Origin: Nemertoderma westbladi
Taxonomy: Eukaryota; Animalia; Xenacoelomorpha
Assembly: GCA_032718475.1 (NCBI GenBank)
Contig: JAUCBJ010008041.1
Location: 1 to 38,137 of the forward strand
Direction of reading: 5' to 3'
DNA: 38,137 nucleotides
The stretch's first letter is position 1, and each line of letters begins with the position of its first letter. The notes beneath the pieces were generated by a model. It was given only the letters and a program-made list of their open reading frames with translations, was not told the DNA's origin and made no database searches. The translations under genes and the position numbers were made by a program. Positions 1,785 to 34,056 of this stretch are shown in pieces.

Positions 1785-1795
1785 ATATCCTTTAA
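1785..1795 (-). promoter_or_regulatory. Putative self-priming PBS of A1 (TTAAAGGATAT, element sense)
   Basis: Abuts the LTR end. Exact reverse complement of LTR-internal 2534-2544. Confidence 0.8.
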
Positions 1796-3014
1796 TGTTC
1801 GCGCTTTCAGACCTTTGGCAGTTTAACCCGCCAAATTAGAATGTCTTCTAGATAATAAATCTGCTTTTTAGTCTATGACAAGTATTTGATTCACTACACT
1901 AGTCGAAACCAATCCGTGCGCGACCATTCACCCGCTGGATATTCCCGGGAGATTGGGTTCGACGGTTTAATTTGTATTGCTATGTAAGCCTAATGTATTA
2001 TTCGACTGACAGTATTATATAATCTCTGACAATATTATTCACCTTCGGTAATATTAACAGTTCCTTTAGGACGTGGCGCTTTATCTACATAAACAGAGTT
2101 ATGACTTAAACTACTCGCAACGATATGGCTTAATTATAATCCACATATATGGCGCATTCTTTAGGAATTGCTTCTTTAACAGACTCACTCATACACTATG
2201 CTGCACAATACTGCACACTAATCTGCCAATCTTCACTGATTTTAGTCACATATAAAAGGAACACAGGCTGACTCATGTAGGGTCTATCAAATAACATTAG
2301 ATTCACTTCAAACCACTTTAACATAAGTCACAATCGTTATTAGTAACCTTTCTCTCTTACCTTCGGTATATCAAGAATATTGGGTTGCGGGGTTATTTAT
2401 CGTTATTCCAAATATAATTATTCATCAACCATATTATGAAGAACTGACAGCAAATAGCAGTATAAAACAACAAGTCAGTACCGGTATGTCAGCAATGAGA
2501 TATAGGCATGTGCATGGTCCGTAGTCAGATATGTTAAAGGATATATGCCCTTTATAATTAAACCTACTAGTGTACGACTAAAAAGCAGTACAGCACAAAA
2601 ATACTTCCAAGCCGTTCTTTCTTTGGCTCAAGACTGAATGTAAACACTGCACATAGGCATTTCGTCATTTCTCGGAAATTCTCTGTACAAGGAGCCACAA
2701 AAACGCTCTCATTGGCTGACTGAGCTGAGAGACACCGTAGAACAAAGGAAATCAACACGTATGAATGTCAGCTGTTAACCGTAGTCATAGTAACTACTGT
2801 TCAAGAGTAGCTATCACTCCTTTGCGTCACGAATTGCCATAGAATCATAAAAATATACCTTTCACAATACACATACGGAGGAAATAAGTCTTAGATCCTC
2901 TAAAAACACCGATACAGTAATAATACGGTCTCTTACACTTATTAAATCAACTACAGAGTATTTTAATGTAAAAGATAATAAAAATAACGGGGCAATTCAG
3001 CAAAGGCTTTTACA
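1796..3014 (-). repeat. 5' LTR of A1 (1219 bp)
   Basis: TG...CA ends homologous to the A3 LTR ends. U5-side part is well conserved, U3-side part diverged. Confidence 0.85.
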
Positions 3015-4508: not shown

Positions 4509-6308
4509 TTAAATTTTAATTAACGGCCCATCCTTTCTCGACATACGGTACTCATTCTTCTCAGGGCTCCGCCTTAGCGTTTGCTTCAATTTACGAAGCC
4601 TTGTGAGTAACATCCCCTTGTTATCCGGTAGCGGTAATTTCGGTTGTTTCCATACCATCCCTATGGTGTACCGCCCCTCGTCGCATCTCATCGACTCCTT
4701 TACACTTTGTATTGCCTGTTTATCTTCTACCGAGGTTCCGACCCCGGTCTCTTTCAATCCCTCAAAGTCCTGTCTGAGTAGTCTCCTGAGCTGCTCCTCC
4801 ACTCCTTCATCTTCTATCTCCCTCATAGTTCCCGCAGACATGCATCCTGATGTCTCCGACATCCTAAACGGAATCTTGCTTCTAATTGGTGTGGAAATTG
4901 CCATTGGGTCACGCTGTTTCTCTTCGCCGAAGACCGTCTGCATTCTCTCGTGGGCCATCGGGCAATCCATTACCACTATAATGGATACCTTCCTAACGTC
5001 CACCTCTGGTATCGAGAAATCGATGCTGTCCAGGAATTTGTATTGTTCGACCTCGATGTTGGTTGGTCGCCTGGTGTTGATATTTATCGATTCTATCACC
5101 TGGATGGGGTTGATGGTCGCCCCATAATCGCATCCCGGTGCTATCGCTGCTATCCCGCACCGTCCGGTCCTCATCCCTAGGACCTCATCTTTGCTGGAGC
5201 TGGTTGTTACCACCATCCTACTTGGCCTCGTCTTTAGTCCTATCTCTTCGGCCACCCAATTCTCGACCAATGTGAAGGCTGCTCCACTGTCGACCAGCAT
5301 CAGCGTGGTTACCGATCGACCGCCTTCTCCGATCACCCTCACTGGTACTACCCCGAGTAGTAACATTCCTCTCTTCTTCGCCCCTATGGTGCTTGTCGCC
5401 ATTGTCTGCCCTTTGCCTTGACCGAACTTAATTGGTGTTTCTTTGCATTGATCAGCTCTGTGTCCGCCCGCCACACATCGATGACAGATTCCACTCTTTC
5501 TTGCATATTCCACCTGGTCTTGTTTGGGCAATGCTTGCCAATATCTGCAGTTCATGGTCTGATGAAGTGCGTTCGTATGCAATTGGCATTTGTTGTCTGG
5601 ATTATAGCCGTCCTTATACAGTGCGCTGCGTATCACACTTACGTTCGTACCTAGATCCCTACTGTTCTTATTGTTTGGGTTCGGCCTACTGGGCGCATTG
5701 GGGTTATGTTTGTTTGTGTTGTTATTGTTTGTATTGTTGTTATTTGTGTTGTGCTGTCTGCTCCATGGTGTGGCCCTACCCCCGGCTACATGTGGACTAG
5801 CAGTCCCCTGAGTCGCCGCGTATGTCAGCGATTGTCTGAGCTTTGGCAATGCGTTCGCCGTGTTGTGTTCTGGTTTCGGCCTGTTATATTCGGTCTTTGG
5901 CCCCTTCCCCAGACTATCCTCGCTATAGACTGGGTCTGTGATCAATTCGGCTTCGTAGTTGAGGAAGCTCGAGATTTCTTCTAGGCCCGGTTCCACTCCC
6001 TTCTTCTCCCGGGTGGAGAAAGCGATTTTTCTCCACTTATTGCGCAGCCAGATCGGCAGTGCCTGCGCTATCGTGGTGATGTTATTAGATGCGTTGAGTT
6101 CATATGGCGCATCTAGCGTCTTCAACATGATTAGTGCCTTCTCGACTTTGTTCGCAAACGTCTTTATGCTAACGGGGCTATCCTGTAGGCCATCCGATGT
6201 TATATCCCTCAGGGTCTGCCGGATGATCTTGGCTGGGTGCCTGTACTCCCTGTCTAGGGCCCGCCATGCAGTTGTGAAGCCACCCTCGATGCCCTGATAC
6301 TGCCTCAC
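4509..6308 (-). pseudogene. B1 gag core, Cys-His knuckles, aspartic protease and pre-RT linker (part of a broken polyprotein)
   Basis: CQLHTNALHQTMNC and CHRCVAGGHRADQC knuckles; LMLVDSGAAFTLV protease motif; GRYTIGMVWK...LPDNKGMLLTRLRKL is the typical Pao pre-RT segment. The last ~12 aa probably come from flanking DNA. Confidence 0.85.
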
Positions 6309-9127
6309 GATGTCATACGCTGGGCCTCCCGTATATACCTGTAGATATTTTAGGCACTCTGCCTGCGTCAGTATAGCGTCAGATTAACCAAGTATATTGT
6401 TGATATTGTAATGGGGGAATGTCACCCTGCCCCCCCCCCCCCACCGGTGGTATGTTTGGTACTGGGGTTGATGTTAATATATTGGGGCCCATAAACCTAT
6501 CCGCAATAACTCTCCCCTCCCCTGGATATATGTTATGTCCCTGCATGCTATTGTCATACTGCTGTGCTGGTACTGGTATAGGCCTATCCACTTCTGGCCT
6601 ACCTACCAGTATGTACTCCGCGACTTCCGGGTTTAACCCCGCCGTCCACGCTACCCTATCGCCTACATTATCTCTCCCAGCATGGCCTATAGTATGTGCA
6701 GTAAGGCCTACAGTATGTCCTGCAGTCTGTATGTGTCCCTCCGGACCGAAGTTTAACCTTCTCGAATAATCCAAGAAGTCCTCCCCGCAACTACCGTACC
6801 CTCGATCGGCAGCTACATCCCGTCGGGGACTTTCTCTTCGATCCCCTCTCCTATTCTCGTCCTTGTACCGGTACGCCCTGTACCCCTCTCTCGGCGTATA
6901 GTACACCTCGCCAGGTCGCGTCTCTCCGGGATGACGGCAATCTCCCGGAGTTCGACCCCACTGACTCTCCAGCTCCATCTCTACTACGACGGCTCGCTAT
7001 CCGTCCTCGCTCTCCTGTCGCTCGCAATGACACTTCTTCTACTCTCTTCTCTTCTTCTCTCTGCAGTGTAGCATCCCCGCTCGTGAGATCTCTCGTCGAC
7101 CTCCCGGTTAAACTCCACTGTCCTTCTCCCTCTTCTGACCGGACCACCGCTAATCTCTCGTTGTGGGGCTCCTGTAGCCCCCCCCCCCCCCACTCGCCAC
7201 CTACCACTTCACTATCTCTCTCTTCGCTTCTACGCCCCTCTCTAGTCGACACACTATCCCTACTGCGGCTGGGTCTATTCACCCCCGCCTCTCCCTCTAT
7301 CACTGCGTGTCCTGACCGGCTCCCGTCGGGTTGACTCACCCCTGCTACTCCCTGCGTATTAACTATTTTGGCCTACCAGGCTCCCATCGGGGTGTCTCAC
7401 CCCCGTTACCCCCTGCGTACTGATTATGTGGCCTGGCAGGCTCTCGTTGGCCGGGCCACTTTCATCTTCCGCGTTTATATTAATAGCACCATTGTCAATA
7501 TTATTTTCTAAATTATTTAAATTATTAGAATTATTCTGTGCTGAATTCGGATTATTATTTAAATTATTCTGTATATTTGAATTAGAATCCGGATTATTTT
7601 GTTCGTTTGAATTAAAATTATTATTTTTAGATTATTTTGCGTATTTAAATTAGGATCGTTCGGATTTAAATTATTGTTACCGGGCAAAATATTATTTCCT
7701 GCAATGAAAGTTTGATTAGGGTTGTCTACTACAGTATTATTAATATTGACGCCTTCTAGCGTATTATTATTACCCCCCCCCCCCCCCCCCCCCCCGCCTG
7801 TACGGTTACACCAGTCTTGGGTTTGTCGTCCGGTCCCTGTAAGTGGGGTATTAACAAACGTTTCCATAACTTCTGGCTCCTCGTAAACAGTACCCGAGCC
7901 AGCCTCACTCTCTGATAGCCCCAATTGCGCCAGTTCTAATCGGCGCTTTTGCTTGGCCTGATATTGCATAAGCCCCCTCAACCGGGCATGCATATCATCC
8001 CGCACACGCTTTCCCGTTCTCTCTCTCTCCCTATCCTCTCGCAAACTCTGCTCGGCCAACTCTGCCTCTCTCGCAATCCTCTCAAGCCGCCTCGCCTCAC
8101 GCTCTTTACGCTCGTTCGCCTCTCTCGCCTCTCGCTCTTTACGCTCATTCGTCTCTCTCGCCTCTCGCTCCTTTCCTTCCCTTATTTCTATCTCCTCACA
8201 CTCTCTAAAGTTTCTTGCGACCCTCTCAGCCCTTTCTTTATTCTCTCTCGCCAGTTCCCTCCCTTTCTCTAATAACGCAGTTCCCTCGTCCAACTGCCTC
8301 TCTAATTCTTTCTGGTCTAGCGCCACCATGTCTAATTGTCATGCCAGATCTATCTCTAACACCCTTCTTGCTTTTGCAAAGGATGTAGCGGACTTATTGG
8401 TTGCGACAGACCCCAGTTGCCTCTCTGTCCTGCTAACTTTCCCCCGCTTTCTGGGGTTCTTGCTAACCGACGAGACCGAATCCTCGGGGTTAACCTCGGA
8501 TTCGCCCTCGTGCAGGTCTGCCCAACCCACTAACTTAATTCCCCTAGCATCCACTAAATACGGCCCTACGTACACTACTTGGGGCTCCATAATCCCGGAC
8601 CACCACAGTTCCAATAGTTCAGTGGCGACCCCCCTCGCTCTCTCACTCGCTAGTTCTCCCTGCCTGAAACGAACTAGGTATCTGAAATGTTTATTCGACT
8701 CACCTAGTCGCTGGCTCAACTTCCCCTGGTCTACCTTTGCTCCCTCTCTGGCCTCCTTGAGCTGTTTCTTCGTGGCGTTGTAGGCCCGTCGAAGCCGATC
8801 GCTGGTTCCGACGTCCTCATCGCCGACACCTCCTCCTCCTCTCCTGGTTCGGCGGCGTACTGTCGCCGTTCTGGTGGGCCGTTCGTCGCCCTCGGCCTGT
8901 GGCTGGCCGGCGACTTCGGCACTTCGACCGCCGTCGTGCGTCGACTCGTCCCCTCATTGTAGTAGACTGCCGCCCTCCGCTTGTGCTGCCGGATCGTCTC
9001 TCGTCGGCGAATCCGGCGTTGCAGGTCGATACCGTCGTGTCACGGCCTCACGGATCATTTCGTTGGTATCGTCCGGGGTCCACGGTGGTGTCCTCTCTCC
9101 CTCTAGATCTCGGGGCTCTGTGCTCAT
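6309..9127 (-). pseudogene. Long low-complexity/coiled-coil N-terminal gag region of B1, broken by stops and frameshifts
   Basis: ATG at 9127 lies ~60 nt after the LTR. Fragments 8339-8719, 7559-8329 and 6379-6978 are colinear and homologous to the B2 ORFs. Confidence 0.75.
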
Positions 9128-9179: not shown

Positions 9180-9188
9180 ATTTCGTAC
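9180..9188 (-). promoter_or_regulatory. Putative self-priming PBS of B1 (GTACGAAAT)
   Basis: Abuts the LTR end. Exact reverse complement of LTR-internal 9372-9380. Confidence 0.75.
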
Positions 9189-9753
9189 TGTGATGGGATC
9201 AGGGGATCCCGACCGGTTTATTAGGTTACGAGTCACCGTGTAATTGAGAAGAAGATAGTTTGTCATTATCGTTCTGATATTGTTATAGGTAAACTGAAAT
9301 AAAATATGATAGCACAGTTGACAGAATGTATGCAGTATGATATAAATGTTGTACCGGTAGTGACGGTGACGGTACGAAATGTCACCGGTCTGCACTGAAT
9401 GACTGAGTAAACTAAACTGGTCGGTACTGTATGCAATATGATATATGATTGTCACTCCTACATTACTTTGGCCTCTCAATCTAGCGGATGCTTCCCTCGC
9501 CCTTATTGGCTAATAGTCTAATTCTCGGCTCTCACCTCTGTGGGAGTGCTTCTCCCCCCGCTGCTGTTACTTTCCCTCTCGAGGTGGTTTGACCTCTAAC
9601 CTCCCTTTGTGTGGCATTCGGGGCTGTGCGTTGTCCCCGTTATTGGATGTGATACGAGATTAGTTGTGATTAATCTCGTATCTCCAATATTGCTGAAAAG
9701 GCGCCACTTCCCAACTTTATGGGGATAGTGAGGCGGAATTGAATCCGCTCACA
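9189..9753 (-). repeat. 5' LTR of B1 (565 bp)
   Basis: TG...CA ends. Shares GACTGAGTAAACTAAACTG, ATTGGCTAATA, CTCCAATATTGCT and GCGGAATTG blocks with the B2 LTRs. Confidence 0.85.
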
Positions 9754-11716
9754 TAAACCCTAAATTAGATACAAGTACTTATACAACATATAACTAGCAG
9801 TTAAATATACGTGAACAGCCAAAAGAACCACGGTATCTGCTGGAGTGACCGGAGCACAAAATCACCAGTCTGTCCTATGCCAAGCAGTCCTGAAGTAGTA
9901 CCGGGGTTAATTTAACTATAATGGTATGCATAACAAGCATAATTACTGTAAAGGATAAACTTGGGGAGTTGTAGGTTGCAAATACTTGCATAAACTCTGA
10001 ATAATAAATATTATGCTACCCGTACAGACTATTCAAACAAAACACAGACCAAATGCTGGCAGACTACTGTCAAGCCTAAATAAACTACAGTATATGCAAT
10101 CTCCGAAATGGTTAGTTAGTAAGCGTTCTAACTACGTAGTACGAGTTATTCTTTCGTGGAGGATTTACCTTACAGCACTGGATGCCTCCTCCTTCCTAAC
10201 TAGCACTTTATTGGACAGAACTCTACATACACTGCAATCGCCTCAGACCTAACAACAGTTAGACAACAATCCGGCCTACAAATTATTTACACAATCTGAG
10301 CAGGCTTACACGCCTTCTGCTCAATATTACACTTACCAGTAACTAAAACCAACAGAAACATGTAAGCTCTAAAAGAAATAAGGGGTGTACAGGCCCTACT
10401 CTCTTAAACAGCCTTCTAATATACAATATATCATAATCAAATAATACTGGGTAAAGTACTGGTTCGGGTTACTAGGCCTACAGTCTACCGTCCGACCGGT
10501 ACGTTCGATTTTATTGCCTACTGAGCAATAAAGAAACTAAAATCTATTAATGTTCGCGCTTTCAGACCTTTAGCAGTTTAACCTGCCAATTTCAATTGTC
10601 CTTTTGATTATGAATCGACCTTGGCCCTTACCAATTACCTGGTGTACTGAAATTACATCCGCCGAAGCCAGTCCGTGCGCGGCGTATGACCCAAGGTGTG
10701 GGAGACTGGATTCGCGTTCCCTAGGAAGTTATTGCGGTGTAGGCTACGTTGTATTATTCGATTGATCTCTACTATATAATCTCTGACAACTATATTTACT
10801 TTCAGGGAAATATTAATAGTTCCTTTGGGACGTGGTGCTTTAAGTATGAAACAGAGTTATGACTTACACTAATCACAACTAGATGGCCACAGAGATTCGT
10901 AAATAGCGCATTCTTTAGGAGATGCTTTATTAACCTTCACACGACTTCACACTACTTCACACTAATTCACACTAATTTGCCGACCGTCACTGATTTTGAT
11001 CATATATAAGGAGGATTGCAACTGACACACGTAGGGATTATGAAATCGCATTTAATTCACACAAAACCACTATAACTTGAGTCACAGTTGCTACCGGTTA
11101 ATCCTTCCTCCGCATATAATAATCAGTAATCAAGAAGATTGAGGGAGGAAGAGAAGATTGAAGATTGATTATTTATCGGTATTCTCCAAATATAACATCC
11201 ATTAATATATACAGCAATTAACACAATATAAAACAGCATTAAAACAGTGCGGTGAACAGTCAGTATGTGTTCATGAAGTTCAGTGTTCCGGTATGACAAG
11301 AGTTATTGCCGCATGTTCTGTTCAGTCCATGTGCATTGTGCAGTCGTACAGTACGAATTGTTAATAGATTTACCTTATTATAACTAAGGCCATCAGATGT
11401 TCTTGGGCCAAAGTCTGAAACGACCGTACTTAGTACAGAATTCTGAGAGGAATCTAATTCTCAGAAAAACGATAACTAAATGCGCATGCGCTAGTTTCCT
11501 CAGGTAGGTCTCCACTGGCATAACTGGGAAGATTGCTCTGATTGTCTGAAAAAGCTTGAACAAAGAGATCTCCACGTACACAAAGAATTAGCTGACAGAT
11601 TTCGTCACCTTGGTTCTAATTTCTGTCCGACGCGTAGTTGAACAATTTTAGGGCTATTTTAGAGTATTCTGCGCATTGCGTAAAAATGACTTGTTTTGTC
11701 CGCAAAAGCTTTTACA
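9754..11716 (-). mobile_element. BEL/Pao family A copy A2: 5' LTR (10551-11716) plus partial leader with one ~288-bp unit
   Basis: Colinear with A1 698-3014. LTR ends TGTAAAAGCTTTTGCG...AGCGCGAACA on the minus strand. Confidence 0.88.
10540..10550 (-). promoter_or_regulatory. Putative self-priming PBS of A2 (TTAATAGATTT)
   Basis: Abuts the LTR end. Exact reverse complement of LTR-internal 11361-11371. Confidence 0.8.
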
Positions 11717-17171: not shown

Positions 17172-18376
17172 TGTAAAGGCTTTTGCGTAATTAGCCGGTT
17201 ATTTTCCCCGTAAAGTACTCTGTAGTTGGTTTACCAGGCATAAAAAGGCCGTGTCCTTACTGTACTGGTGTTTTAGAGGACATAAAAGTAATTTCTTCTG
17301 TATGTGTACTTTAGCGGACATAATCCGCAATTCTATGACGTAAAAGCCGAAATACTCTTGAACAGTGTAGTTACTATGACGACAGCTAATAGCTGAGCTG
17401 TACACGTGGAGCCTCTGCACGGAGCCTTGGTTCTTTGTTCTGCTCAGCTCAAATGACGACATCTATCAGCTGTGTCCACGTCAGTTCGACCAATCAGAGA
17501 TTTTCCCTTTGTGTAAAAAGCTGTACAGCAGAATCCCATGATTCAGTACTGACGTTTCCCCCACGCCTAAGAACACCGGCCGGGGAATGTTTTCTGACAT
17601 TAGAGCGTCTTTAATTATAAGATCATCAAACTGTTATCTCGGTACTGACTACAGCACCTCGGTTAACTTGGTCAACTTAGTTAAGTACACTTGCATTATT
17701 TACTGCTATTTACTGTGTTGTTAATTGTATCTTCGTTTACATATTATTATTGGGAAGAATATTGATAACGATCCGAAACCCCAATCTTCTTGATACACTA
17801 AGGTTAGAGAGACCGGTTACATATAACAATTTGCGACATACATTATCGTGGTTTGTAGTGAGTTCAATGCTACTTAATAGGCCCTACAAATGTTGGTTGC
17901 TGTTCTCTTTATATATGATTAAAATCAGTGAATATCGGCAATTCAGTGTGCAGTTGTGTGCAATAGTCTGTGTGTGCTTGACCGAGTAACAAAGCATTTC
18001 CTAAAGAATGCACTTTGGTGATCTATAAGACATACCGTTGTGTATAGTGTAAGTCATAGCTCTGTTTAAATAGATAGAGCGCCACGTCCTAAAGGAACTG
18101 CTAATATTTCCCAAAAGGTGAATAATATTTGTCAGAGATTATATATTAACGATCAATCGAATGGTATGGTAGGCCTGCACCGCAATCAAATTAAAGCATC
18201 CAAATCCAGTCTCCCGGGTATATCCAGCGGGTGAATGGTCGCGCACAGACTGGCTTTGGCTAATGTTAGAATTATTATAGGTGTTCAATACTTGTCATAG
18301 GCTGGAGTAGATTTATAACCTAGAAGACATATAGATTTGGCGGGTTAAACTGCCAAAGGTCTTAAAAGCGCGAACA
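17172..18376 (+). repeat. 5' LTR of A3 (1205 bp)
   Basis: Direct repeat of 34057-35259. About 3 substitutions and one 2-bp indel seen by eye. Confidence 0.96.
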
Positions 18377-18387
18377 ATAACAGTTTG
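18377..18387 (+). promoter_or_regulatory. Putative self-priming PBS of A3 (ATAACAGTTTG)
   Basis: Abuts the LTR end. Exact reverse complement of CAAACTGTTAT at 17627-17637 (and 34512-34522). Confidence 0.8.
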
Positions 18388-18664
18388 TAGGATCTTGATT
18401 GCGGCGTAAGCGATCAAGACTAAAGTACCGGTCGACCGGTAACCAGTAGGCCTGACTGCCTGATCATCCGGACCGGTACTTACAACAGTACAGGTACAGC
18501 AGTATTATTCGATTTTGATAGTTATATACCGGTAGGCCTTAATAATTAATCAGGGAGGGCCCGCCCTGGTTTTTTATTGAGATTTTACTTATTTCTGTCA
18601 GTTTTATTTATTTGTAGGCCAGTATTGAGCAGAAGGCGTGTAAGCCTGCTCAGTCTGTACAGAC

Positions 18665-20422: not shown

Positions 20423-20555
20423 ATATATTATATATATATCACGCTACACTGAGCAGCAGTATCGGTAATTAATTATTAGGCTAACAGTGATACTGAATTA
20501 CTAGACTTACTTTAGCTGAATTTATAGCCGTAGGCATTCAACTGTGTAAACAAAC

Positions 20556-23228
20556 ATGTCTGACACAAAACGGGCACTGTCAGATAGTCTTTTGGAAGGT
20601 GTTAGAATGAGTCTTAGACTTGGACAGGGTCTTGAAAGGAAGATGGCAGAGGCAATGGCAACAGCAGAAGCGGAAAGAAAGGCGGAAGAGGCAATGGCAA
20701 CAGTAGAAGCGGAAAGAAAGATAGAGACACCTGTACTCCCAGAACCTGCCTATAAATTCCCTTTGAACAGTACTAAACTACCTGTGCCCAGTAGGACTGT
20801 TCCCGAGTCCGAACCCGTCCTGGACGCCGAGCGAGATATCAAGAATTTATCGCCCGTCGTCTCTCGCTCGCCCGCTATTACGTTGGCGACTCCCGCTTCG
20901 GCGGTTGAGTGGGTAGCTGAGGGACGACGGGAGATGGGTCTCCTGCTCGAGCAGCTGAGGGAACACTGTTTGTGCTCCTCTCAGCAGGTCCGGGAAATGG
21001 AAGAGACTGTTCAGCAGCTCAAGGGAACAGTAAGGGAAAGTAGGTTAGAGTTGCAAAAGGTGCAGCAAAGTATCGCGTTAGAACGCGATAAATTAGTGAA
21101 CATACAAAGGGGTATAACACCACCCCCTGTAACAATGTGTCAACCCGTTAGGTCTGAAGTATTTCATGCGCAAGGTGTGGAGCCTACACGCATCTATACT
21201 GCTAGTGAAGTAGAAACTCCTATAGTAAACCCTATTCAGGGTAATTATAAACCTGTTGATAATAATATTCCATATAGACCTGATCATAATCCGAGAAATT
21301 TATATACCGATAATTCTATATTCAATAATACGATGGCTCAAGAAAGTTTTACGCGTCAGATGGCTAGAACAGAAGCCCACCAAGCGGTCAAAGTGGGAGA
21401 AATCGTCAAATTCAATGGAGATGAGATGAAATGGTTATCTTTCAATGAATATTACAAAGATAGCATACAGAACTCTGTACTATCTAACGGAGAGAAACTT
21501 AGATTCCTCATCAAGTGCTTGGAAGGACCTCCCAAATTAATGGCGTTAAAGTTTATTGGACATCCAGATGGATTAAGACAAGTTTGGGATACATTAAACA
21601 TCAGGTATGGTAATAGGACTAACATAGCTAGGTATTTATATGCGAAATTAATGGCGCCCCGAAAGTTTCTTAGCAGCGGGATTATAGAATTTTCCGATGA
21701 AATTCAGGAGATCTGTAGACAGCTAGATTGGTTAGGTAAGTCTCATGAATACCAGAACTCTATGGTTGTAGGAGCCTTAGCATCTACTTTACCAAAGGGT
21801 GGAGTAGGTACACGCTGGGACAAGAAAGTGTTATATATGATGGAACAACAACAACGAGACCCTACCATGGCTGATCTCATGTCCTTCTTAGATAGTGAAG
21901 TAAAATTACAACTCATAAAGCAGTCCAGAGAGAAAACATCGGAAAATAAGGTAAGTGAGAAACCCGTTTCTAGGAGAAGGGTAACACCAGTGTGTTATAC
22001 TGACGACGGCGAAAGCCAAGTCTCTCAGGAAGAGGACAGCGGGAAAGACACAGCAAAATCCTACTATGACAACAAGACCTATAAAGACGTAAGTAAATAT
22101 AAGTCTCGAACCAGTGACCGGAGAGAACAGGTAACAACAACTCCTCCTACGTCTCCTAAGAGAATTCACGGAAGAAAGCCCGAAGAAAGAACGAGAGTGC
22201 ATAACGTTGCCCAAGGTAAAGTGAGTAACATCAAACCAAAATGTGCGCTGTGCGACGGGCCCCACCGTTTGAGAGTGTGTGCTGAATTCCTAAAGAAATC
22301 CCTGGTAGACAGACGTGAAGTCATGTGGGATAAGCGGTTATGCTATAATTGCCTCAGACCAGGACACCAACGGCGAACCTGTTTCTCCGAAGTAAAGTGT
22401 GCAAAGTGCGGTGCGAAACATCACATCTTGTTACGCAGTGAATTCGAACGAAACAACCCAAGTCAGGTAAGTGAGCCCGAACTACATGTCCAATTCAGTG
22501 ATGTAAATGACACTGATCAAGAGTCTGAGATGGAAGGATTCTATACGGACGAATTCTCCGACGCCAACGAATCCTGTTACCTAATAAATACCGCAGTGTA
22601 TCGAGCACTTACGTATGAAAAGGACACCGACAATGAGTTCCCCCCAACTACCTTTGACAGACAACCATCTTGGAAACCTCCAACTTCCAACGTAGGAATC
22701 AGAGAATTTCCTGTAGTGCAGGTAAGAGTTCACGGTCCCAACAAAAGTTACATAGTGAACGCCCTCCTTGACTCCGGCAGCACAGGAACATTCATCGATC
22801 AAGAACTAGCCGAAGACATCTTTGCTGGACAACCCAAATTCCGAACTAAGTTGGATATGTCAGGAATTATGCAGGTTTGGAAATCTACCATAACGGCAGA
22901 TTACTATGTAGGTGCGTTGTCCACCCCCCAGGATAAATTAGGAGAACAAAGTATAAGGTCAGTAAAAATGGTGGCTATAAAGAACTTCGCTACTACCCAG
23001 GTAGAACCTTATAACTGGGACGAGGACGAGAGCATCCAGCAGCTTAAGATACCTCGATTCCACACAGATTATCCTGGAGTGCAAATACTCATCGGCCAAA
23101 ACGCGCATGAGGCGCTAGAGACATTGGAGAAACGGCCTGCTCAACCACAGCCACTACAAACCTATGCAGTAAGAACTAGAGTAGGTTGGTACTTCACTGG
23201 CCCTTCCCGTATAACTCTCAAAGTGTGA
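20556..23228 (+). CDS. A3 Gag-protease polyprotein (BEL/Pao), interrupted after codon 889 by B2
   Basis: KFNGDEMKWLSF...SNGEKLRFLIKCLEG gag core; three Cys-His motifs (CALCDGPH, CYNCLRPGH, CAKCGAKHH); ALLDSGSTGTFI protease motif. Confidence 0.93.
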   Translation: MSDTKRALSDSLLEGVRMSLRLGQGLERKMAEAMATAEAERKAEEAMATVEAERKIETPVLPEPAYKFPLNSTKLPVPSRTVPESEPVLDAERDIKNLSPVVSRSPAITLATPASAVEWVAEGRREMGLLLEQLREHCLCSSQQVREMEETVQQLKGTVRESRLELQKVQQSIALERDKLVNIQRGITPPPVTMCQPVRSEVFHAQGVEPTRIYTASEVETPIVNPIQGNYKPVDNNIPYRPDHNPRNLYTDNSIFNNTMAQESFTRQMARTEAHQAVKVGEIVKFNGDEMKWLSFNEYYKDSIQNSVLSNGEKLRFLIKCLEGPPKLMALKFIGHPDGLRQVWDTLNIRYGNRTNIARYLYAKLMAPRKFLSSGIIEFSDEIQEICRQLDWLGKSHEYQNSMVVGALASTLPKGGVGTRWDKKVLYMMEQQQRDPTMADLMSFLDSEVKLQLIKQSREKTSENKVSEKPVSRRRVTPVCYTDDGESQVSQEEDSGKDTAKSYYDNKTYKDVSKYKSRTSDRREQVTTTPPTSPKRIHGRKPEERTRVHNVAQGKVSNIKPKCALCDGPHRLRVCAEFLKKSLVDRREVMWDKRLCYNCLRPGHQRRTCFSEVKCAKCGAKHHILLRSEFERNNPSQVSEPELHVQFSDVNDTDQESEMEGFYTDEFSDANESCYLINTAVYRALTYEKDTDNEFPPTTFDRQPSWKPPTSNVGIREFPVVQVRVHGPNKSYIVNALLDSGSTGTFIDQELAEDIFAGQPKFRTKLDMSGIMQVWKSTITADYYVGALSTPQDKLGEQSIRSVKMVAIKNFATTQVEPYNWDEDESIQQLKIPRFHTDYPGVQILIGQNAHEALETLEKRPAQPQPLQTYAVRTRVGWYFTGPSRITLKV

Positions 23229-23772
23229 CGGGATCTACGGATCCCGGTTTATCCGTTGGGTTTTCTATCCACGCGTCCCCGCCGTGTGTGAAAGGTAAAA
23301 GAGTTCTGATGTTCGGTAATATGTATAAAGGTATAATAGTCTGATATAGCACAGTATAGTATGACACGGTTACCGGTAGATAAGTATGATGGCGGTAGCG
23401 GACGGTGACAGAAGTCCCCGTTCCACCCTACTGATCTGACTGAGTAAACTAAACTGAATAGGGAAGCACCAACAGGTAATATATGTACTGCACAGTTGGC
23501 CATATTACTGTACCTAGTCGATGCTGTCCCCCCATTGGCTAATATCCCACTTCTCGCCCTTTCACCTTCCCTGGTGTGTTTCCCGTTGCCCCTGTTGTTC
23601 TCTCTCTGTTAGGGGTTTGGCCCCTGACCCTTATTGTGTGTGTCTCCTTTGGGGCCTATTGTCCCCGTTTACTGGGGTGACACGAGGTTGATTGGTAATC
23701 AACCTCGTGCTCCCAATATTGCTCAATGGCTTACTTTGTGGGTTCATGTTAGCGGAATTGGATAAGCTAACA
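23224..23772 (-). repeat. 3' LTR of B2
   Basis: Direct repeat of 30040-30588, adjacent to the PPT. Confidence 0.96.
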
Positions 23773-24199
23773 CTCCCCCCCATGCTATCTTCCCGGTGAG
23801 AAGATAGCATCCACCAAAAAATGCGCTACAATTCCGCTGGATCCCGATCTAGTATCGGGTGTGGGGTGGGTTATTTTCTTTCGGAGCCGGCTTTCCTGGC
23901 CGCTCCCTATGGGTATGATATTGCTACCCTCTGGCGTTTCGTGTCGGGCCGATCGTGCGCTTCTCTCACACAACTTTTGTTTCCCCAACACTTTCGCCCT
24001 GACTCTACTCTTCCTCTCCTCTCTTGCTCTAACTCTTGGACTTCCCTGTCCCTCACTCTTCCTCTCACTTCTCCCCCCCCCACGCTTGAATTGCGCCCAC
24101 ACTCTCTCCACACTATCTCCATACCACCTCTCGCTATCTCTCTTGCCCTCCCTAAGGCCCAAATCTCTAATGCTACCCCTGTGCTATCATACCATCTAC

Positions 24200-25000
24200 C
24201 TACTGCTTACTAACTCTAACTATCTAACTCTACTAACTACTAACTCTACTCTCCGCTAACTCTCACTACTTCTGGCTCTAACTAAAGCCTCTAACTTTCT
24301 ACTAACTCTAACTAGAACTACTAAGTCTAGCTAACTCCTACTAACTCTCTACTTCTACTAACTCTACTTGACTCATCTAAGTCTACCAACTCTCTAGCCC
24401 TTTAACTAGAACTCCCTAACTCTACCCACTCTTCTAACTACGTGGCGCTTGCGGTGCCCACAACCACTCTACTATCTGGCACCCTATGTGCCCTTCTACT
24501 ACTCAACTACCTCTCTAACTCTACTACCTGGCACCCTATGTGCCCGTCTCTACTATTCTACTCTCTGGCACCCTATGTGCCCTCTCTACTACTCTACTCT
24601 ATCTCTAACTTACTTCCTTTACATCCACTCGCCTGCACGTGATGCTCTGAATGCCGGCAGAGTGGGTACGTTAATTATGTGAACTACTACTGACTCTACT
24701 AACTCTACTAACTCTCTTCTAACTCTACTAACTCTTTTTGTGCCTGGCACCTCTTGTGCCCGGCACCTTCTAACTCTACTAACTCTTTTTGTGCCCGGCA
24801 CCTCTTGTGCCCGGCACCTTCTAACTCTACTAACTCTACTAACTCTCTACTAACTCAACTAACTCTACTACTAACTCAACTAACTCTACTACTAACTCTT
24901 TTTGTGCCCGGCACCTCTTGTGCCCGGCACCCACCCTAATTAACATACCCTGCTCTTACATCAAACACGTCATCACGCCCTTGCCCCACTAAGTTCAGCG
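24200..25000. repeat. Low-complexity CTAACT/CTACT tract with GGCAC-N5-GTGCC hairpin repeats
   Basis: GGCACCCTATGTGCC x3 at 24478-24580 and GGCACCTCTTGTGCC x3 at 24746-24925. Confidence 0.85.
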
Positions 25001-25078
25001 CATTCCCTACTAACTCTAACTACGTGGCGCTTATGGTGCCCACAACCCTCTACTGCTCTACTAACACTCCTAACTAGT

Positions 25079-25597
25079 GGTACTACGTACCCTCTTACTA
25101 CTCTAGCTCTCTCTACTAGCTAGCGGTACAACGTACCCTCTTACTACTCTAGCTCTCTCTACTAGCTAGCGGTACTACGTACCCTCTTACTCTTACTAAC
25201 TCTCTCTACTCTTACTAACCGGTACTACGTACCCTCTAACTCTTACTCCCTAACGGTACTACGTACCACCCTCTAACTCTTACTCTCTAACGGTACTACG
25301 TACCCCTTAACTCCTAACTAACTAGCGGTACTACGTACCCTCTAACTCTCTAACTAACTAGCGGTACTACGTACCCTCTTACTCTCTAACTAACTATCGG
25401 TACTACGTACCCTCTAACTCTCTAACTAACTATCGGTACTACGTACCCTCTAACTCCTAACTAACTAGCGGTACTACGTACCCTCTAACTCTAACTAACT
25501 AGCGGTACTTACGTACCCTCTAACTCTCTAACTAACTATCGGTACTACGTACCCTCTAACTCTCTAACTAACTATCGGTACTACGTACCCTCTAACT

Positions 25598-25630
<33 letters not shown>

Positions 25631-25940
25631 GGTACTTACGTACCCTCTAACTCTCTAACTAACTAGCAGTACTTACGTACCCTCTAACTCTCTAACTAAC
25701 TAGCGGTACTTACGTACCCTCTAACTCTTTAACTAACTATCGGTACTACGTACCCTCTAACTCTAACTAACTAGCGGTACTTACGTACCCTCTAACTTTC
25801 TAACTAACTAGCGGTACTTATGTACCCTCTAACTCTCTAACTGACTAACGGTACTTACGTACCCTCTAACTCTCTAACTAACTAGCGGTACTTACGTACC
25901 CTCTAACTCTCTAACTAACTATCAGTACTACGTACCACCC
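25079..25940. repeat. Minisatellite of about 23 GGTAC-T(T)AC-GTACC hairpin units, period mostly 34-37 bp
   Basis: Counted by eye. Spacers are built of CTAA and CT modules. Confidence 0.92.
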
Positions 25941-26021
25941 TTTAACTAACTAACTAACTAACTAACTCTTACTACCTAACTTCTACCTACTCTATTATTT
26001 AATTATTTTCATTAATTTTAA

Positions 26022-29000
26022 TTAAATAATTATTTTATATTTTATGCGTGGGAAGGGCGTCTCGCCCTCATTCCCACCCCCCTCAGTCCAAAACTTTGGA
26101 CGACTAAAAACTCTCACGTGCCCCTTCTTCCAGTAGGCTCTCTCCTGCTGCCCTCCTATACGTCCTCTAACTCTTCGCCACACTCTCTTCGACACTACCT
26201 CCGCTAGCCTCCCCCTTCGTATGTGCGCTGGCATTAAAGGCCTCGACGACCCCCGCTCGTTCCTTGGTACACATGGCGTCTGCCCGTGCAATGCCCCCTC
26301 GCACTGTGTCCATCCTGCGTGTGTATGCAACACGCCTCCTTCTACTTTCCCGACTCCCTTATGTTTGCTAATGGGCTTCTCTGCCCCTGGTTTAGTCCTT
26401 TCATATCCTCTCCCTTTCCAACACTCTCCGGATCTGTGTCCTTTTACCACACATCGATGACATAGTCCGTTTGCGTCTGTGTAGGCTACACGATCTCGTT
26501 TGGGCAACGCTTGCCAGTACTTGCAACTCCTGGTCTTATGGGTTCCGTCCCGATGTAATTGACATTGGAATCCTGGATTATAGCGTTTCCTGTATAGTCC
26601 TTCACGTATCGCGCTTAGGTTTATATGTACCGATTTAATGTTTTGGTTGTCTAGACTCGGCCTACTGGGTATATTGGGATTGTTTTTATTTACGGTGTTA
26701 TTTTCTTTCTGTCCCTGCCACGGTGTGGCCCTGCTACCAGCTAACTGTGGACTAGCAGTCCCCTGTATGGCTCCGTGTGGTAGTGACTGCCCGCACGACC
26801 TGTTCTCGTCCAGGGAGTTCGATGTTCTTGCTCCTATCGGGGTATATTGTCGATATCGTGATGGGGGAATGTCACCCTGTCCCCCCCGGCCGGTATGTTT
26901 GGTACTGGGGTTGATGTTAATACATTGGGGCCCATACGTCTATCTCCAATAACTCCCCCCTCCCCTGGATATATGTTATGTCCCTGTGTATTATAGTCAT
27001 GCTGCTGTACCGATATAGGCCTACCTACCTCTCGCCTACCTACCGGTATGTACTCCGCGACTTCCGGGTTTAATCCCGTCGTTCGCGCTACCCCATCGCC
27101 TACTCTATCTCTCCCAGCATGGCCTATAATAGTATGTGCAGTAAGGCCTACAGTATGTCCTGCAGTCTGCATGTGCCCTTCCGAACCGAAGTTTATTCTT
27201 CGCGAATCTCGAATCTCCCCGCGACTACTGCACTCTCGATCGGCAGCTATATCCCGTCGGGAAGCTTCTCTTCGATCCCCTCTCCTGTTCTCGACTTCTG
27301 TATTGGTACGTCCTGTACCCCTCTCTTGGCGTGCGGTGCGTTTCTCCGGGGCGACGGCAATCTCCCGAAGTTCGACCCCACTGGCTCCCTGACTCCATCT
27401 CTACTATCGACGGTCCGCTATCTGTCCTCACACTCCTATCGTTCGTGGCGACACTTCTTCTACTATCTCCTCTTCTTCCTCTTTTCAGTGCAGTATTCCG
27501 GCTCGTGAGATCTCTCGTCGACCTCCCGGTTAAACTCCACTGTTCTTCTTCCCTCTTCTGATCGGGCTCGACGCTTCGCCTGCCCTCTCGCGACGTCAAC
27601 CTGCCTCTCTCTGCTCGATCGCACGCCGCTGGGGATACTCGCAATCCCCCTATTACTCTCCGTCGCCGGGTGTTGCGGTTTACCTAGCTTCGGCCCGCGC
27701 ATTATCCGCCGACGCCTGTGGGACACTCTCTGCCCCCCCTCTCTCTCTACTAATCTCTCGCGGTGGGGTGCCGTAGCCCCCCCCCCCCCACCCGCCACTT
27801 CTAACTTCACTATCTCTTACTACACTTCTGCGTCCCTCTTGTCGGACATTCTCTACCCCCCTTCTCTCGCCACTAATCTTTCGTGGTGGGGCTCCTGTAG
27901 CCCCCCCCCCCACCCGCCACTTCTAACTTCACTACCTCCTACTACACCTCTACACCCCCCTTGTGGGGCATTCTCTGCCCCCCCTCTCTCGCCACTAGTC
28001 TTATGTGGTGGGGCGCCGGTAGCCCCCCCCCCACTCGCCACATCTAACTTCACTATCTCTTACTTCGTCTCTACACCCCTCTCTAGTCGACGCACTGTCT
28101 TTACTACGGCTGGGTCTATTCACCCCCGCCTCTCTCTCTACTACTGCGTGGCCTATCAGGCCCACCTCGGGTTGGCTCAACCCCGCTACCTCCTGCCTAC
28201 CAACTACGTGGCCTACCAGGCCGCCGTCGGGTTGGCTCAACCCTGCCACTTCCTGCCTACTAACTACGTGGCCTACCAGGCCACCGTCTGCCGGGTTATG
28301 TACGTCTCGACACGCTCATATTAATAGCACCATTCCCAATATTATTTGTTAAATCAATTAAATTATTAGAATTTGAAACGTGATTATTATTTAAATTATT
28401 TAAATTACTTAGATCACTACTATTCTCTAAACTTAAATTATTATTCGAATTATTTTGCGGGATTGAATTGAAATTATTATTTAGAGTATTTGTATTTAAA
28501 TTTAAATTACTACTACCCGGTAAAATATTATTTCCTGTAATAAAGGGATTAGGGTTATCTACTACGGTACTATTAATATTAACTGCTTCTAACGTACTAC
28601 TACTACCCCCCCCCCCCCCCCCGCCCGTACGGCTACACCAGTTCTGGTTCTCTCGCCCGGTGTCTGTAAGTGGGGTCTCACTCTCTGACAGTTCCAACCG
28701 CGCCAGTTCTAGTCGGCGCTGATTCAGTTTGGCTTGATGTTGCATAATCCCCCTTAGTAGGGCATGCAAATCATCCCGCCTGCGCTTACACTCTATCCCT
28801 CTCTGTCGCATATCCTGCTCGGCCGACTCTGCCACTCTCGCAACCATCTCAAGCCGCCTCGCCGGCTCGTTCTCTACTCCCATCTCTCGCTCTCTACACT
28901 CCTTGGCTCTCTCTCTAGACTCCTCGGCTTTCTCTCTATACTCCCTTTCCGACTCTCCTAACTCCTCTGAGAATGCGGTTTCCTCTCTCAATTGTCTCTC

Positions 29001-29875
29001 TAACCCATCCTGCTCATTCGCCACCATTTCCAATCTACACTCCAGATTCATCTCCCGCACCCTTCTTTCTTTTACGGAGGATGTAGCAGACTTATCGGTT
29101 GCGACGGACTCCCGCCGCCCCTCCGTCCTACTAACTTTCCCCCGCCTCCCGGAACTTCCTCCAACCGACGAGACCGAATCCTCGGAGTTAACCTCGGATT
29201 CGCCCTCCTCAGGTCTCTTCCAACCCACTAATTTTACTCCCCGGGCATCGACTAAGTATGGCCCTATGTACACTACACTAGGTTCCATACCCCCACATTC
29301 CCATAGTTCAATCAGTTCGTTGGCAACCCCCTTCGCTCTCTCCTCGGCTAGTTCTCTCTGCCCAAAACGCATTAGGTAATCAAAGTGTCTGTTCGACTCA
29401 CCTAGTCGTTTCCTCATCTCACCTCGTCTATCTTCGCCCCTCCTTTGGCCTCTCTCAGTTGCTCCCGGGTCGCGAGGTAGGCCCGTCGAAGTCGATCAGA
29501 AACCCCGACGTCCTCGTCGCCGACCTCTCCTCCATCTCTCCGGGTCCGACGTCGTACCGACGGCCCCACCGTCGCCGTTCCGGTGGACCGTCCGTCGTCC
29601 TCGGCCTGTGGCTGACCGGTGACATCGGTACGTCGACCCTCGCTCCGCGTCGACTCGTCTTCCTCTTCTCCTCCCGACTCGATTTCTCTTTGTAGACGAC
29701 CCCCCACATCTTGGTTCGCCGGGTCGCTCGTTATCGACGTGGCGTCAACGTGCGTCGACGTGGTCGGCGTAGCATCGACCGGCGTCGTGGGTTCGTATCG
29801 TCTCGCCGTGGCCTCGCGGATCGTTAGATCGTCGTCCGGGGTCCGCGGCGGTGTCGTTCCTTTCTCTCGACTCAT
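26022..29875 (-). pseudogene. B2 degenerate gag: N-terminal region and Cys-His knuckles; gag core, protease, RT and integrase absent
   Basis: ORFs 29414-29875, 28296-29417, 26834-27172 and 26022-26507 are homologous to B1. The segment matching B1 ~5860-6390 is missing near 26800-26845. Confidence 0.8.
27690..28290. repeat. Internal tandem repeats in B2 gag (3 x ~120 bp and 2.5 x 60 bp)
   Basis: GTAG-poly(C)-CACCCGCCACTTCTAACTTCACTA x3; CGTGGCCTAYCAGGCC at 28147, 28207 and 28267. Confidence 0.85.
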
Positions 29876-30030
29876 CTTCGTCTTTGGTGGCTGGCAGCCA
29901 CAGTCTGTCAGTTGGTTGGATCTAGTTCTATCACTGTCAGACTGTTAGGGCAGCTGCTAGGATTCTATCACTGTCAGGGCAGCTGGGTGGATCTGATTCT
30001 GTCACTGTCAGGGCAGCTGGGTGGATCTGA

Positions 30031-30039
30031 TTCTGTCAC
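30031..30039 (-). promoter_or_regulatory. Putative self-priming PBS of B2 (GTGACAGAA)
   Basis: Abuts the 5' LTR end. Exact reverse complement of LTR-internal 30221-30229 (and 23405-23413). Confidence 0.75.
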
Positions 30040-30588
30040 TGTGACGGGATCTACGGATCCCGGTTTATCCGTTGGGTTTTCTATCCACGCGTCCCCGCCG
30101 TGTGTGAAAGGTAAAAGAGTTCTGATGTTCGGTAATATGTATAAAGGTATAATAGTCTGATATAGCACAGTATAGTATGACACGGTTACCGGTAGATAAG
30201 TATGATGGCGGTAGCGGACGGTGACAGAAGTCCCCGTTCCACCCTACTGATCTGACTGAGTAAACTAAACTGAATAGGGAAGCACCAACAGGTAATATAT
30301 GTACTGCACAGTTGGCCATATTACTGTACCTAGTCGATGCTGTCCCCCCATTGGCTAATATCCCACTTCTCGCCCTTTCACCTTCCCTGGTGTGTTTCCC
30401 GTTGCCCCTGTTGTTCTCTCTCTGTTAGGGGTTTGGCCCCTGACCCTTATTGTGTGTGTCTCCTTTGGGGCCTATTGTCCCCGTTTACTGGGCTGACACG
30501 AGGTTGATTGGTAATCAACCTCGTGCTCCCAATATTGCTCAACGGCTTACTTTGTGGGTTCATGTTAGCGGAATTGGATAAGCTAACA
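30040..30588 (-). repeat. 5' LTR of B2
   Basis: Direct repeat of 23224-23772. Confidence 0.96.
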
Positions 30589-30592
30589 CAAA

Positions 30593-31045
30593 GAGAGATT
30601 ACCTCAAGAACAGGTATACCAAGTAAAGGAATGGGAAGTGGAGAGCAGTGAGGTGGACGACCCAACTGAGGGAACACCATACTCCTCAGATAATGACGAT
30701 ATTAACTCCAATGTAGATCAATGGAGACATTGCCTTGGGACGATTAATCCAGCCGACATTGCTTCCAGAGGAGCAACTCCTCAAGAACTGATAGATACTC
30801 CAGGCTGGTTAGGTGGATCCGACTTCTTAAGTAAAGAAGAAGAAGAATGGCCTCCTCATATTACCACGGCGGAGATTAGACAGGCCAAGGGAGCGGAGAA
30901 AGTAACACAACAACTCAATCGCCCAGCTGGTCATTTATGTTTACTGGAAAGAGACCGAAAACTGTCCGGAAACTATGGAAGGCAAGATACTCTTCCTACG
31001 ACCACTTCCCTAATCCGACAAATATCTAGGGACTCCATAACGTAA
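30593..31045 (+). CDS. C-terminal 150 aa of the A3 ORF, with the BEL/Pao RNase H C-terminal motif
   Basis: In frame with 20556-23222 once B2 and one TSD are removed. Contains QWRHCLGTINPADIASRG...WLGGSDFL...EEWP. Confidence 0.88.
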   Translation, partial: ERLPQEQVYQVKEWEVESSEVDDPTEGTPYSSDNDDINSNVDQWRHCLGTINPADIASRGATPQELIDTPGWLGGSDFLSKEEEEWPPHITTAEIRQAKGAEKVTQQLNRPAGHLCLLERDRKLSGNYGRQDTLPTTTSLIRQISRDSIT

Positions 31046-31876: not shown

Positions 31877-34056
31877 GTCAATTGCACTATCAAATAATAA
31901 AATTTCAGGGAATAAATTTGAATTCATATTTTAATGAATTTAATAAATTGTCATTCTGTGCAATTTATAACATTCCCAAAATCCCATTAATTAATAGATC
32001 ACGGGAGCGGAGATTCATCCTATTAAGTGTGTTAGAGTGTGAGAATCTCCCATGTATGAGTCAATAGCCGATAAAATTTATAAAATCATATATAAACGAG
32101 ATATTGGACCATTAAAGAATTACTATTAAATAGCATCCCAGATCTGTATGCATTGGAATTACCCTAATTCTACCGCTAGCTTTCCATAATGTCACCATAG
32201 TAACACCCACGCTAGAATTAGAAACAAGTTAAAAAGAACAATAGAAAGCTTGCCCATTGCATAGTAAGAAATAAATAGCGCACTGCTAGTATCCAAGGAT
32301 ACATAATAATAACGTGGCATTCTGGAAGGCACTGACTAACGGACAAATGGCCCGAGTGTGTGTAATTTGTGACAGTTGTGTGTGTGGAATTTGTGAGTTT
32401 ATAGGCGAATGTTACTACTAAGGTGTGTTTACAGTAGCGAGTCGCAATTGTGAAAGTAACCCTAACTCTCCAGTAAGAACCTGAAGTGTATCTAAGCCTT
32501 TGGGACGGACAGTGGAGTGACTCGTGCTAGTGTCGTTGTCGTTGTGTAGCTACACGTTGGCGGAAAACACAGCGGCGACGATACATTTGCGCTGAGGCTC
32601 TTACACTGTCCGGGGGCTGATTGGGGTAGGCAGCGACGCTCGCTAGCCTAATTATAAGCTCATTATAATATTAATAAACTCATATATAGCAGATATAACG
32701 GAGTTGATAGAAGATGGTCTTGGTATCGGGGAGCGATATACTCTACCTTTACAAGTGTTTGTTGATAGCTTGATACGCGGCGACGCTAGTCCAACTACTA
32801 CGAAGGACGATGGTCGTTATATCGAACCGACGATTTCCTAGAAGCAACTTACGCGTGAATTGGACTATGGAAAATTCACCGCTCGCTACACGCATCGTAA
32901 TAGTACGTATATGGACTTCTTAACCATTGGCCATTCTATCGATTCACACGATACGGACTATGTCGAACATATATCCTACCCAGCGGAGTCGGAACGATAA
33001 ACTGAAATTCGAATGCGAAAATTCTATTCGAAATCGACTCGAAAGAAAAGACATTAGAGAGACAAATGGACGCGGTAACTCTAACGTATATTTGGAATTC
33101 TTGATAGAAGCATTGTAACAACAAATAAATATCATCCGCGTTTCCCCTACCAGACGTGCGTCTTTGGTATTATTACGATAAATGCCCTAGACCCAACTAA
33201 TAAACGGAAAGACATAAACATCCACGGAAACCGAAACTTGTTCGACATATCACCTACGCTCGCTCGACTCAGACGATCCTTGAGTAAACCTACGATCATA
33301 GTTCCGGAATACTCGGTCAGACCACCTCGTTCCTTGATTAGACCTCAGACTTTCGATTCTGATGGTATCCCAGATCCTCACGAGCTGTATTCACTGTTCA
33401 AAGATCTAGTGCTACCCTAACAATTAATCGGTAACACTCCGGCAGCGAGCTCTAGCTAGCCGCCCATCTTACCTAGCCGTATTGGGACGCGGACACCTAA
33501 TATCACCATTCAACCGTATGGTCGTCCCAGTTTAACGCGATACAACCCTTCATCAAGGTGAAGGAGAGCGTTGTACGAAACGAGTTAAACGCTATTCTAC
33601 AAAGATCAGAAAGGAAACCTGCGTTTGTTCAGATAAACGTAAGTTATAACAGCAAGTCCAAGCGGTAAACGAATTGGCTTATCTCAGTTCGATTGGGAAA
33701 TCTTGAATCTCTAAGAAGATATCGAGCTTAGACAACCCTATTCTCTGCGAGAGTTTTGGACGAGCGTGTCCAACGACAAGCGGAGGAAAATCAGCTCGAG
33801 GAGAAGCAGATCGAAATGGACGAGACACTGACCGTAACCCTAAACCTTCTGATGCAATGATATTGCACCCTTCACCCAGGAGTTATAGCCCTCCTAGTAA
33901 AGTGGCTCGCCCCAAAGAGAAAAGGACTCTTGCTAGCCTCAAAAGCTGCATAAACGCCGTCCGCGTAAGAAAGACTAACTGTTTAGAGTATTTTTATATT
34001 TTAGAAACTGTGATTTGTTATATTTTATAGACTTAAATCCCATTTTCTGGGAGCGG

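Follow-up and report, generated by a model that had tools for sequence, protein, structure and literature searches.

BEL/Pao retrotransposons are generally described as tRNA-primed, as the initial annotation of this locus also held; the ICTV account of the Belpaoviridae agrees and gives tRNA priming from an 18-nt primer binding site (PBS) for tRNA-Arg or tRNA-Gly (PMC8742986). The available part of a further source has the element Achilles primed by tRNA-Tyr (PMC4580426). The DNA analyzed here, 38,137 nt of Nemertoderma westbladi (assembly GCA_032718475.1, contig JAUCBJ010008041.1, forward strand; hereafter the window), holds five BEL/Pao copies in two families, A and B, and the question is from what these copies start minus-strand DNA synthesis. 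With a tRNA-type site judged by TGG, no such triplet occurs in the first 8 nt, or in the first 20 nt, after any of the five LTRs. We suggest, with a probability of roughly 70%, that these non-autonomous elements use a segment of their own LTR RNA as primer, and not a tRNA. The underlying match between LTR and PBS is real and lies far beyond chance. It was found in family A as follows.

17172..18376, plus strand: 5' LTR of A3, 1205 bp, TG...CA; LTR pair 99.6% identical, target duplication (TSD) GGTTC
17627..17637, plus strand: putative self-primer segment of A3, LTR position 456-466, followed by C; match equalled in 3 of 3000 shuffles
18377..18387, plus strand: PBS of A3, flush with the LTR end, no TGG; exact reverse complement of 17627-17637
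34049..35259, plus strand: short purine tract and 3' LTR of A3 (3' LTR 34057-35259), with a second copy of the 11-mer at 34512-34522
1785..3014, minus strand: A1 5' LTR (3014-1796), primer segment (2544-2534) and PBS (1795-1785); 2 of 3000 shuffles
10540..11716, minus strand: A2 5' LTR (11716-10551), primer segment (11371-11361) and PBS (10550-10540); 2 of 3000 shuffles

A3 is a complete insertion (17172-35259) with two TG...CA LTRs, identical at 1200 of 1203 aligned bases, and the 5-bp target duplication GGTTC; the two LTR copies and the duplication therefore fix its LTR end independently of the pairing. A1 and A2 are minus-strand 5' LTRs that share their last 12 bases with A3 and continue into a homologous leader. 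Each of the three copies continues past its 5' LTR with 11 nt that form an exact reverse complement to a stretch of that LTR 738-810 nt upstream; the match spans 11 nt, begins flush with the LTR end and is followed by C. Between A1, A2 and A3 the PBSs differ pairwise at 6, 4 and 3 of 11 positions and every difference is compensated, each PBS matching its own LTR over 11 nt and the sibling LTRs over 6 nt at most. PBS identity of only 5-8 of 11 positions thus stands next to LTR-end bases that are identical at 12 of 12, a degree of variation incompatible with a fixed tRNA primer.

Dinucleotide shuffles of the LTR reached an 11-nt match in 3, 2 and 2 of 3000 trials (A3, A1 and A2), arbitrary window positions did so in 17 of 10546 cases (1.6e-3), and the flank behind the A3 3' LTR, used as a control, matched over 4 nt. 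The initial annotation had described this arrangement for A1-A3, and its six coordinates and sequences were correct letter for letter, as were the absence of a TGG-initiated PBS, the exact and flush 11 bp followed by C, and the compensated differences. Its chance estimate of 3e-4 per copy was somewhat low against the shuffles and the window background. Family A is abundant in the host, with 6995 contigs of run X1 aligned to the LTR plus leader. Logan contig depth on the A3 letters drops from ~125,000 to ~3,000 across the PBS in this run, which is in line with a variable PBS; the flanks of 3' LTRs and of solo LTRs also contribute to the drop.

The second BEL/Pao family of the window shows the same relation between PBS and LTR with other letters and a shorter match.

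23224..30588, minus strand: B2, nested in A3; LTRs 30588-30040 and 23772-23224 (549 bp, 2 mismatches), TSD CAAAG
30229-30221, minus strand: primer segment of B2, with its 9-nt PBS at 30039-30031; 4 of 3000 shuffles
9180..9753, minus strand: B1 5' LTR (about 9753-9189), primer segment (9380-9372) and 9-nt PBS (9188-9180); 12 of 3000 shuffles
4509..6383, minus strand: B1 gag-protease reading frame, Pfam DUF1759 and Asp_protease_2

Both B copies carry a flush 9-nt match to their own LTR, 181-183 nt upstream and followed by C. The two sites differ at 5 of 9 positions, all of them compensated, and the window background for a 9-nt match is 75 of 10732 positions (7e-3). Since the gag proteins of B1 and A3 are only 22% identical over 153 aa, we treat family B as a separate replicate of the self-match. 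Over the five copies in two families, 51 of 51 primer-PBS pairs are Watson-Crick and the ends of the match are sharp. In the B2 leader the 9-nt site occurs a second time, the PBS and the bases after it being repeated 34 nt downstream (30006-30039, minus strand).

The position just past the far end of the match holds a pyrimidine-pyrimidine mismatch in 5 of 5 copies (T/T in family A, at 17626/18388 in A3, and T/C in family B), which would give the duplex a sharp outer edge. Two further candidates were dropped. A splice-built primer is not needed for either family, since all five copies have a contiguous best match. Additional pairing upstream of the primer, noticed by eye, is not a shared feature: 17, 199, 204, 32 and 58 of 500 shuffles equalled it in the five copies.

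The classification of both families rests on their coding remains.

20550..23228, plus strand: A3 gag-protease reading frame, 892 aa, its end interrupted by B2; Pfam DUF1759, E=1e-13
30707..30922, plus strand: remnant of the BEL RNase H C-terminus in A3 (NPAD motif), from tblastn of the fetched proteins >1000 aa

The DUF1759 gag lies above the Pfam cut-off in A3 and B1. In A3 the Cys-His boxes at 565 and 598 were found by pattern and a third (CX2CX3HH, last His absent) was read from the translation; the protease has ALLDSG at 738 and LIG about 105 aa further on. A triple Cys-His box in gag and LLDXG and LIG protease motifs are BEL/Pao hallmarks in the available text of PMC554778. A3 and B2 also have the two TG...CA LTRs, short target duplication and purine tract typical of BEL/Pao, and the likeness to the Belpaoviridae as described by the ICTV extends to the LTRs of 0.5-1.2 kb, triple Cys-His gag, protease, RNase H remnant, 5-bp TSD and purine tract, whereas the 18-nt tRNA PBS and tRNA priming of that description stand against five of five window copies without TGG (PMC8742986). 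The BEL/Pao identity given to family A in the initial annotation holds by these protein features. A tblastn search with all fetched proteins >1000 aa gave no reverse transcriptase (RT) or integrase match for A or B anywhere in the window, and pol in A3 consists of the protease and then the RNase H C-terminal remnant only. With RT and integrase absent, the window copies are non-autonomous, and no autonomous copy of either family was seen in the data examined. The closest protein-search matches of A3 were only 24-37% identical, and a ranking of loci by summed score was biased by duplicated loci; the viral contigs scanned contained no BEL relative, and no metagenome contig had the LTR-end pattern. 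About 3 kb of non-coding or decayed A3 sequence before the 3' LTR (31045-34056) showed no match to the fetched BEL proteins.

We then turned to BEL/Pao elements in public contigs that carry gag and pol. Eighteen full-length BEL proteins were taken from the hit list, and their alignment led to 92 fetched loci. Twenty-four loci with a terminal repeat were inspected and 14 were kept, with the LTR end set by the two LTR copies and, in L015, L027 and L065, adjusted by eye to CA. The other ten were left out: L025, L047, L059 and L092 each belong to the family of a retained locus, the contig ends within the 3' LTR in L033, L035, L080 and L081, and the repeats of L017 and L044 are damaged or are not LTRs. 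A match was accepted at an offset of 0-4 nt from the LTR end, contiguous or across any GT..YAG intron, under a donor rule that was loosened once, after L062 had been inspected by eye.

By this rule 12 of the 14 relatives have a perfect self-match of 10-16 nt, reached by 0-7 of 200 shuffles, and none of 12 host-flank controls reached 10 nt. Three of the matches are contiguous and nine are best across a predicted GT..AG junction; eight of these nine reach only 5-8 nt unspliced, and four have a GTAAGT donor. A match that is best across a splice junction, with GTAAGT as donor in four cases, points to pairing at the level of RNA. The predicted LTR intron measures 76-511 nt in L007, L021, L027, L032, L048, L060, L062, L082 and L083, and in these nine the match begins 1-4 nt past the LTR end, as against flush in A and B. 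A restriction to offset 0 gave best matches of 4-8 nt in the 10 loci scored, the full matches emerging with offsets of 1-4 nt. C adjoins the match in 7 of the 12 self-matching relatives, L082 and L083, which form one family, are weak cases (3 and 7 of 200 shuffles), and L065 has no significant match. L090, the sole element of the 14 that starts with TGG, is of tRNA type and matches itself over 4 nt only. A quick RT tree of 43 rows groups the self-matching loci in one clade (SH-aLRT 96), with L090 outside. A tRNA-type label given to L033 and L062 was dropped when both were re-read as self-matching. An exploratory scan with unknown LTR ends, kept outside the count of 12 of 14, placed 11 of 20 loci at no more than 1 of 20 shuffles; it held two more without a purine tract, and the match of L081 disagrees with its family.

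Fourteen of the contigs (L079-L092) come from prokaryote genome records and encode BEL/Pao proteins, and they are probably host DNA; L090 sits in a 1.4-Mb Wolbachia chromosome record.

The proposal of a self-priming BEL/Pao lineage in the initial annotation, with its call to look for complementarity between post-LTR and LTR-internal sequence in relatives, is thus strengthened as to the self-match, which was confined to family A in that proposal and extends to family B and to 12 of 14 relatives; priming is inferred from sequence only. A3 and B1, for which no named clade could be assigned, form long branches in the gag-protease tree and fall outside the self-matching group; for this reason the relatives are only possible kin of A3 and B1.

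We propose the following course of priming. Transcription would start in the 5' LTR at or upstream of the segment, the RNA would fold back so that the segment pairs with the PBS, and an autonomous partner would provide RT in trans, the RNase H of which would cut just before the conserved C, as in Tf1. RT could then extend the new 3' end across U5, and the PBS would be renewed from the primer during plus-strand synthesis, so that the two sequences could drift and still match perfectly. Such renewal is suggested by the perfect pairing, with no G-U pair, in a site that changes fast next to an LTR end that does not vary. In many relatives the predicted intron splits the segment and splicing would build the primer, whereas A and B would carry it ready-made. 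Initiator-like motifs lie 16-47 nt upstream of the segment, with more at greater distance, so that the primer probably corresponds to the 3' end, internal to the transcript, of a short 5' fragment rather than to the very first 11 nt.

17611..17620, plus strand: TTA(A/G)TTATAA motif, present in A1, A2 and A3 at 11-17 nt before the primer segment

The names initiator, TATA, CCAAT and poly(A) signal for these motifs follow general consensus sequences. TTA(A/G)TTATAA reads as initiator-like or TATA-like. By motif scan all three A copies have initiator-like motifs at -16 or -17 and further upstream, and TATAA at -11 or -12. Family B has CCAAT and initiator-like motifs upstream of the segment, a conserved initiator-like block that begins 40-44 nt before it and, some 30 nt ahead of the LTR end, a poly(A)-like hexamer; this layout would place the segment within a long predicted R region, and the motif scan points to a start about 40 nt upstream of the segment in B. 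Promoter-like motifs and the spliced relatives together point to a primer that is an internal segment as opposed to the first 11 nt of the transcript. If TATAA were a true TATA box, transcription would start downstream of the A segment and the segment would lie outside the 5' end of the RNA. One presumed RNA run had no contig aligned to 18345-18430.

Folding of the predicted RNA was explored with nested structures.

18336..18357, plus strand: predicted hairpin near the LTR end, U5 inverted-repeat-like, kept in A1-A3 (helix enumeration)
18180..18419, plus strand: two competing predicted helices after the PBS, long-range 18180-18189/18395-18404 or local hairpin 18393-18402/18410-18419

For an RNA begun at the segment, the predicted probability that segment and PBS pair is 0.91 in A1, 0.93 in A2, 0.75 in B2 and 0.91 in B1, and it is 0.006 in A3, the youngest copy, where only nested folds count. 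Adding 15 bases upstream leaves it high in A1 and A2 and lowers it to 0.03 in B2 and 0.003 in B1, again among nested folds only. Both competing helices, the long-range one and the local hairpin, can form in all three A copies. Duplexes like those that flank the Tf1 site are possible on both sides in A3 and A1 (6 bp; 8-10 bp) and downstream only in A2 (7 bp), in competition with the local hairpin; family B has no shared pair of flanking duplexes, only a common hairpin at the LTR end. In family A the sequence that follows the PBS has a choice between local pairing and pairing to an LTR stretch ~190 nt upstream, close to poly(A)-like hexamers (ATTAAA in A3 and A1), and in these models it could act as a switch that hides the poly(A) signal of the 5' LTR.

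The folding and motif results bear on the closest alternative, that the primer is derived from the element without a fold-back of the RNA's own 5' end and comes from a second RNA molecule, from the 3' LTR copy or from a small RNA of LTR transcripts. The distance of 738-810 nt in family A is long, the predicted fold-back fails for A3, the same 11-mer is present in the 3' LTR, and the TATAA 11-12 nt upstream could put the A segment in U3. A primer acting in trans would, however, have to come from the same subfamily, as each copy matches its own LTR only, and the B segment lies in predicted R, downstream of the CCAAT and initiator-like motifs and upstream of the poly(A)-like hexamer. We consider this alternative unlikely, though it is the strongest of those weighed.

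It could also be that a host tRNA fragment or another host RNA primes and that the LTR pairing merely masks the site or organizes the leader. The tRNA priming described for BEL/Pao (PMC8742986) and, in the available text, for Achilles (PMC4580426) speaks for a host primer, as does the half-tRNA priming reported for Ty1/copia in the part available of PMC6317226. Five different sites in one window, none of them with TGG, would nonetheless need several host primers, and in the relatives the element's own RNA would have to be spliced, as predicted, for the complement to exist. Perfect pairing without G-U would also be unexpected of a merely structural helix, and we regard a host primer as improbable. 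A last alternative is that the match arose by chance, or through template switching in defective copies and has no function. Every one of the five window copies is defective, an 11-nt match has a background of 1.6e-3 and a 9-nt match one of 7e-3, and the rule for relatives, with its offsets and introns, was relaxed once. This alternative is nonetheless very improbable: in five of five copies the match stands at a homologous place, flush with the LTR end and in different letters, it returns in relatives with gag and pol, and the controls are negative.

Priming from the element's own LTR RNA has known counterparts. The available part of PMC6317226 describes self-priming for Tf1/sushi and predicts it for Tcn1 and copia TAR, and the plant survey reported there required 10 nt or more of complementarity beginning 0-5 nt past the LTR. 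Like the window copies, Tf1 and Tf2 of S. pombe, Tj1 and Tosmo1-3 of the Tf1/sushi group have, in the source texts available, no tRNA site and a PBS by the LTR CA that is complementary to an LTR segment. The geometry is that of the Tf1 descriptions available, in that the first PBS base pairs with the 3' end of the segment, which is thereby placed to copy U5. Further helices by the PBS are possible in the Tf1/sushi "pretzel", as here (available parts of PMC10085805, PMC4600332 and PMC5341516). The window elements are BEL/Pao and not chromoviruses, however: where Tf1/sushi elements have a Ty3/gypsy-type gag-pol and a chromodomain integrase, the gag, protease and RNase H remnant are BEL-type here, the A primer lies 738-810 nt from the PBS, and the intron-split primer of the BEL/Pao relatives has no counterpart in the Tf1/sushi descriptions available. 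Compared with plant Tcn1 (gypsy) and TAR/Houba/Osr-1 (copia), family A and the 12 relatives show the complementarity asked for and B, with 9 nt, is one base short; those elements belong to other superfamilies and other hosts, BEL/Pao lying outside that survey as far as the available text goes (PMC6317226).

Our literature search found no report of BEL/Pao self-priming, with most subscription papers, Repbase and GyDB outside its scope. A term look-up in the available parts of PMC3118150, PMC554778 and PMC2774666 gave no mention of a PBS, and the parts available of PMC3601003, PMC6934838, PMC8220671, PMC5443660, PMC7472051 and PMC13524379 held nothing on BEL self-priming. For yeast Tf1 self-priming has been proven, and for certain gypsy and copia lineages it has been predicted; BEL/Pao, as the third large LTR superfamily, is listed as tRNA-primed. 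The BEL/Pao element Cer7 of C. elegans reportedly was proposed to encode its own tRNA-like primer, in sequence near the 3' LTR; it would share an element-encoded primer with the copies described here, although that primer would be tRNA-like and not a short LTR segment that covaries with the PBS.

We lean slightly towards a broader reading, in which a large part of animal BEL/Pao would be tRNA-independent, with an internal leader primer cut before C, recopied into the PBS and often assembled by splicing, and with A and B as intron-less, deeply diverged forms. If this is true, host splicing of the LTR intron would be a switch for reverse transcription, and a widespread animal lineage would be independent of host tRNA. 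Such a lineage would lack the site by which 3' tRNA fragments silence mammalian LTR elements, according to the available part of PMC7472051. It would also explain BEL elements in which annotation finds no PBS. An internal or splice-built primer would exceed the Tf1 mechanism, and it predicts a 5' end cut at one base and a defined RNA-DNA junction.

ARAGORN reported no tRNA anywhere in the window. Positions 1-35259 form a nested cluster. A non-LTR retrotransposon RT frame of 711 aa (RVT_1 and DUF6451; 14091-16226, minus strand) is unrelated to the self-match. A tandem array within B2 (25045-25994) showed no match to the fetched BEL proteins. B2 lies inside A3 at the end of the gag-protease frame, the B1 LTR abuts the A2 leader, and the 5' flank of A2 resembles the start of a B-type LTR.
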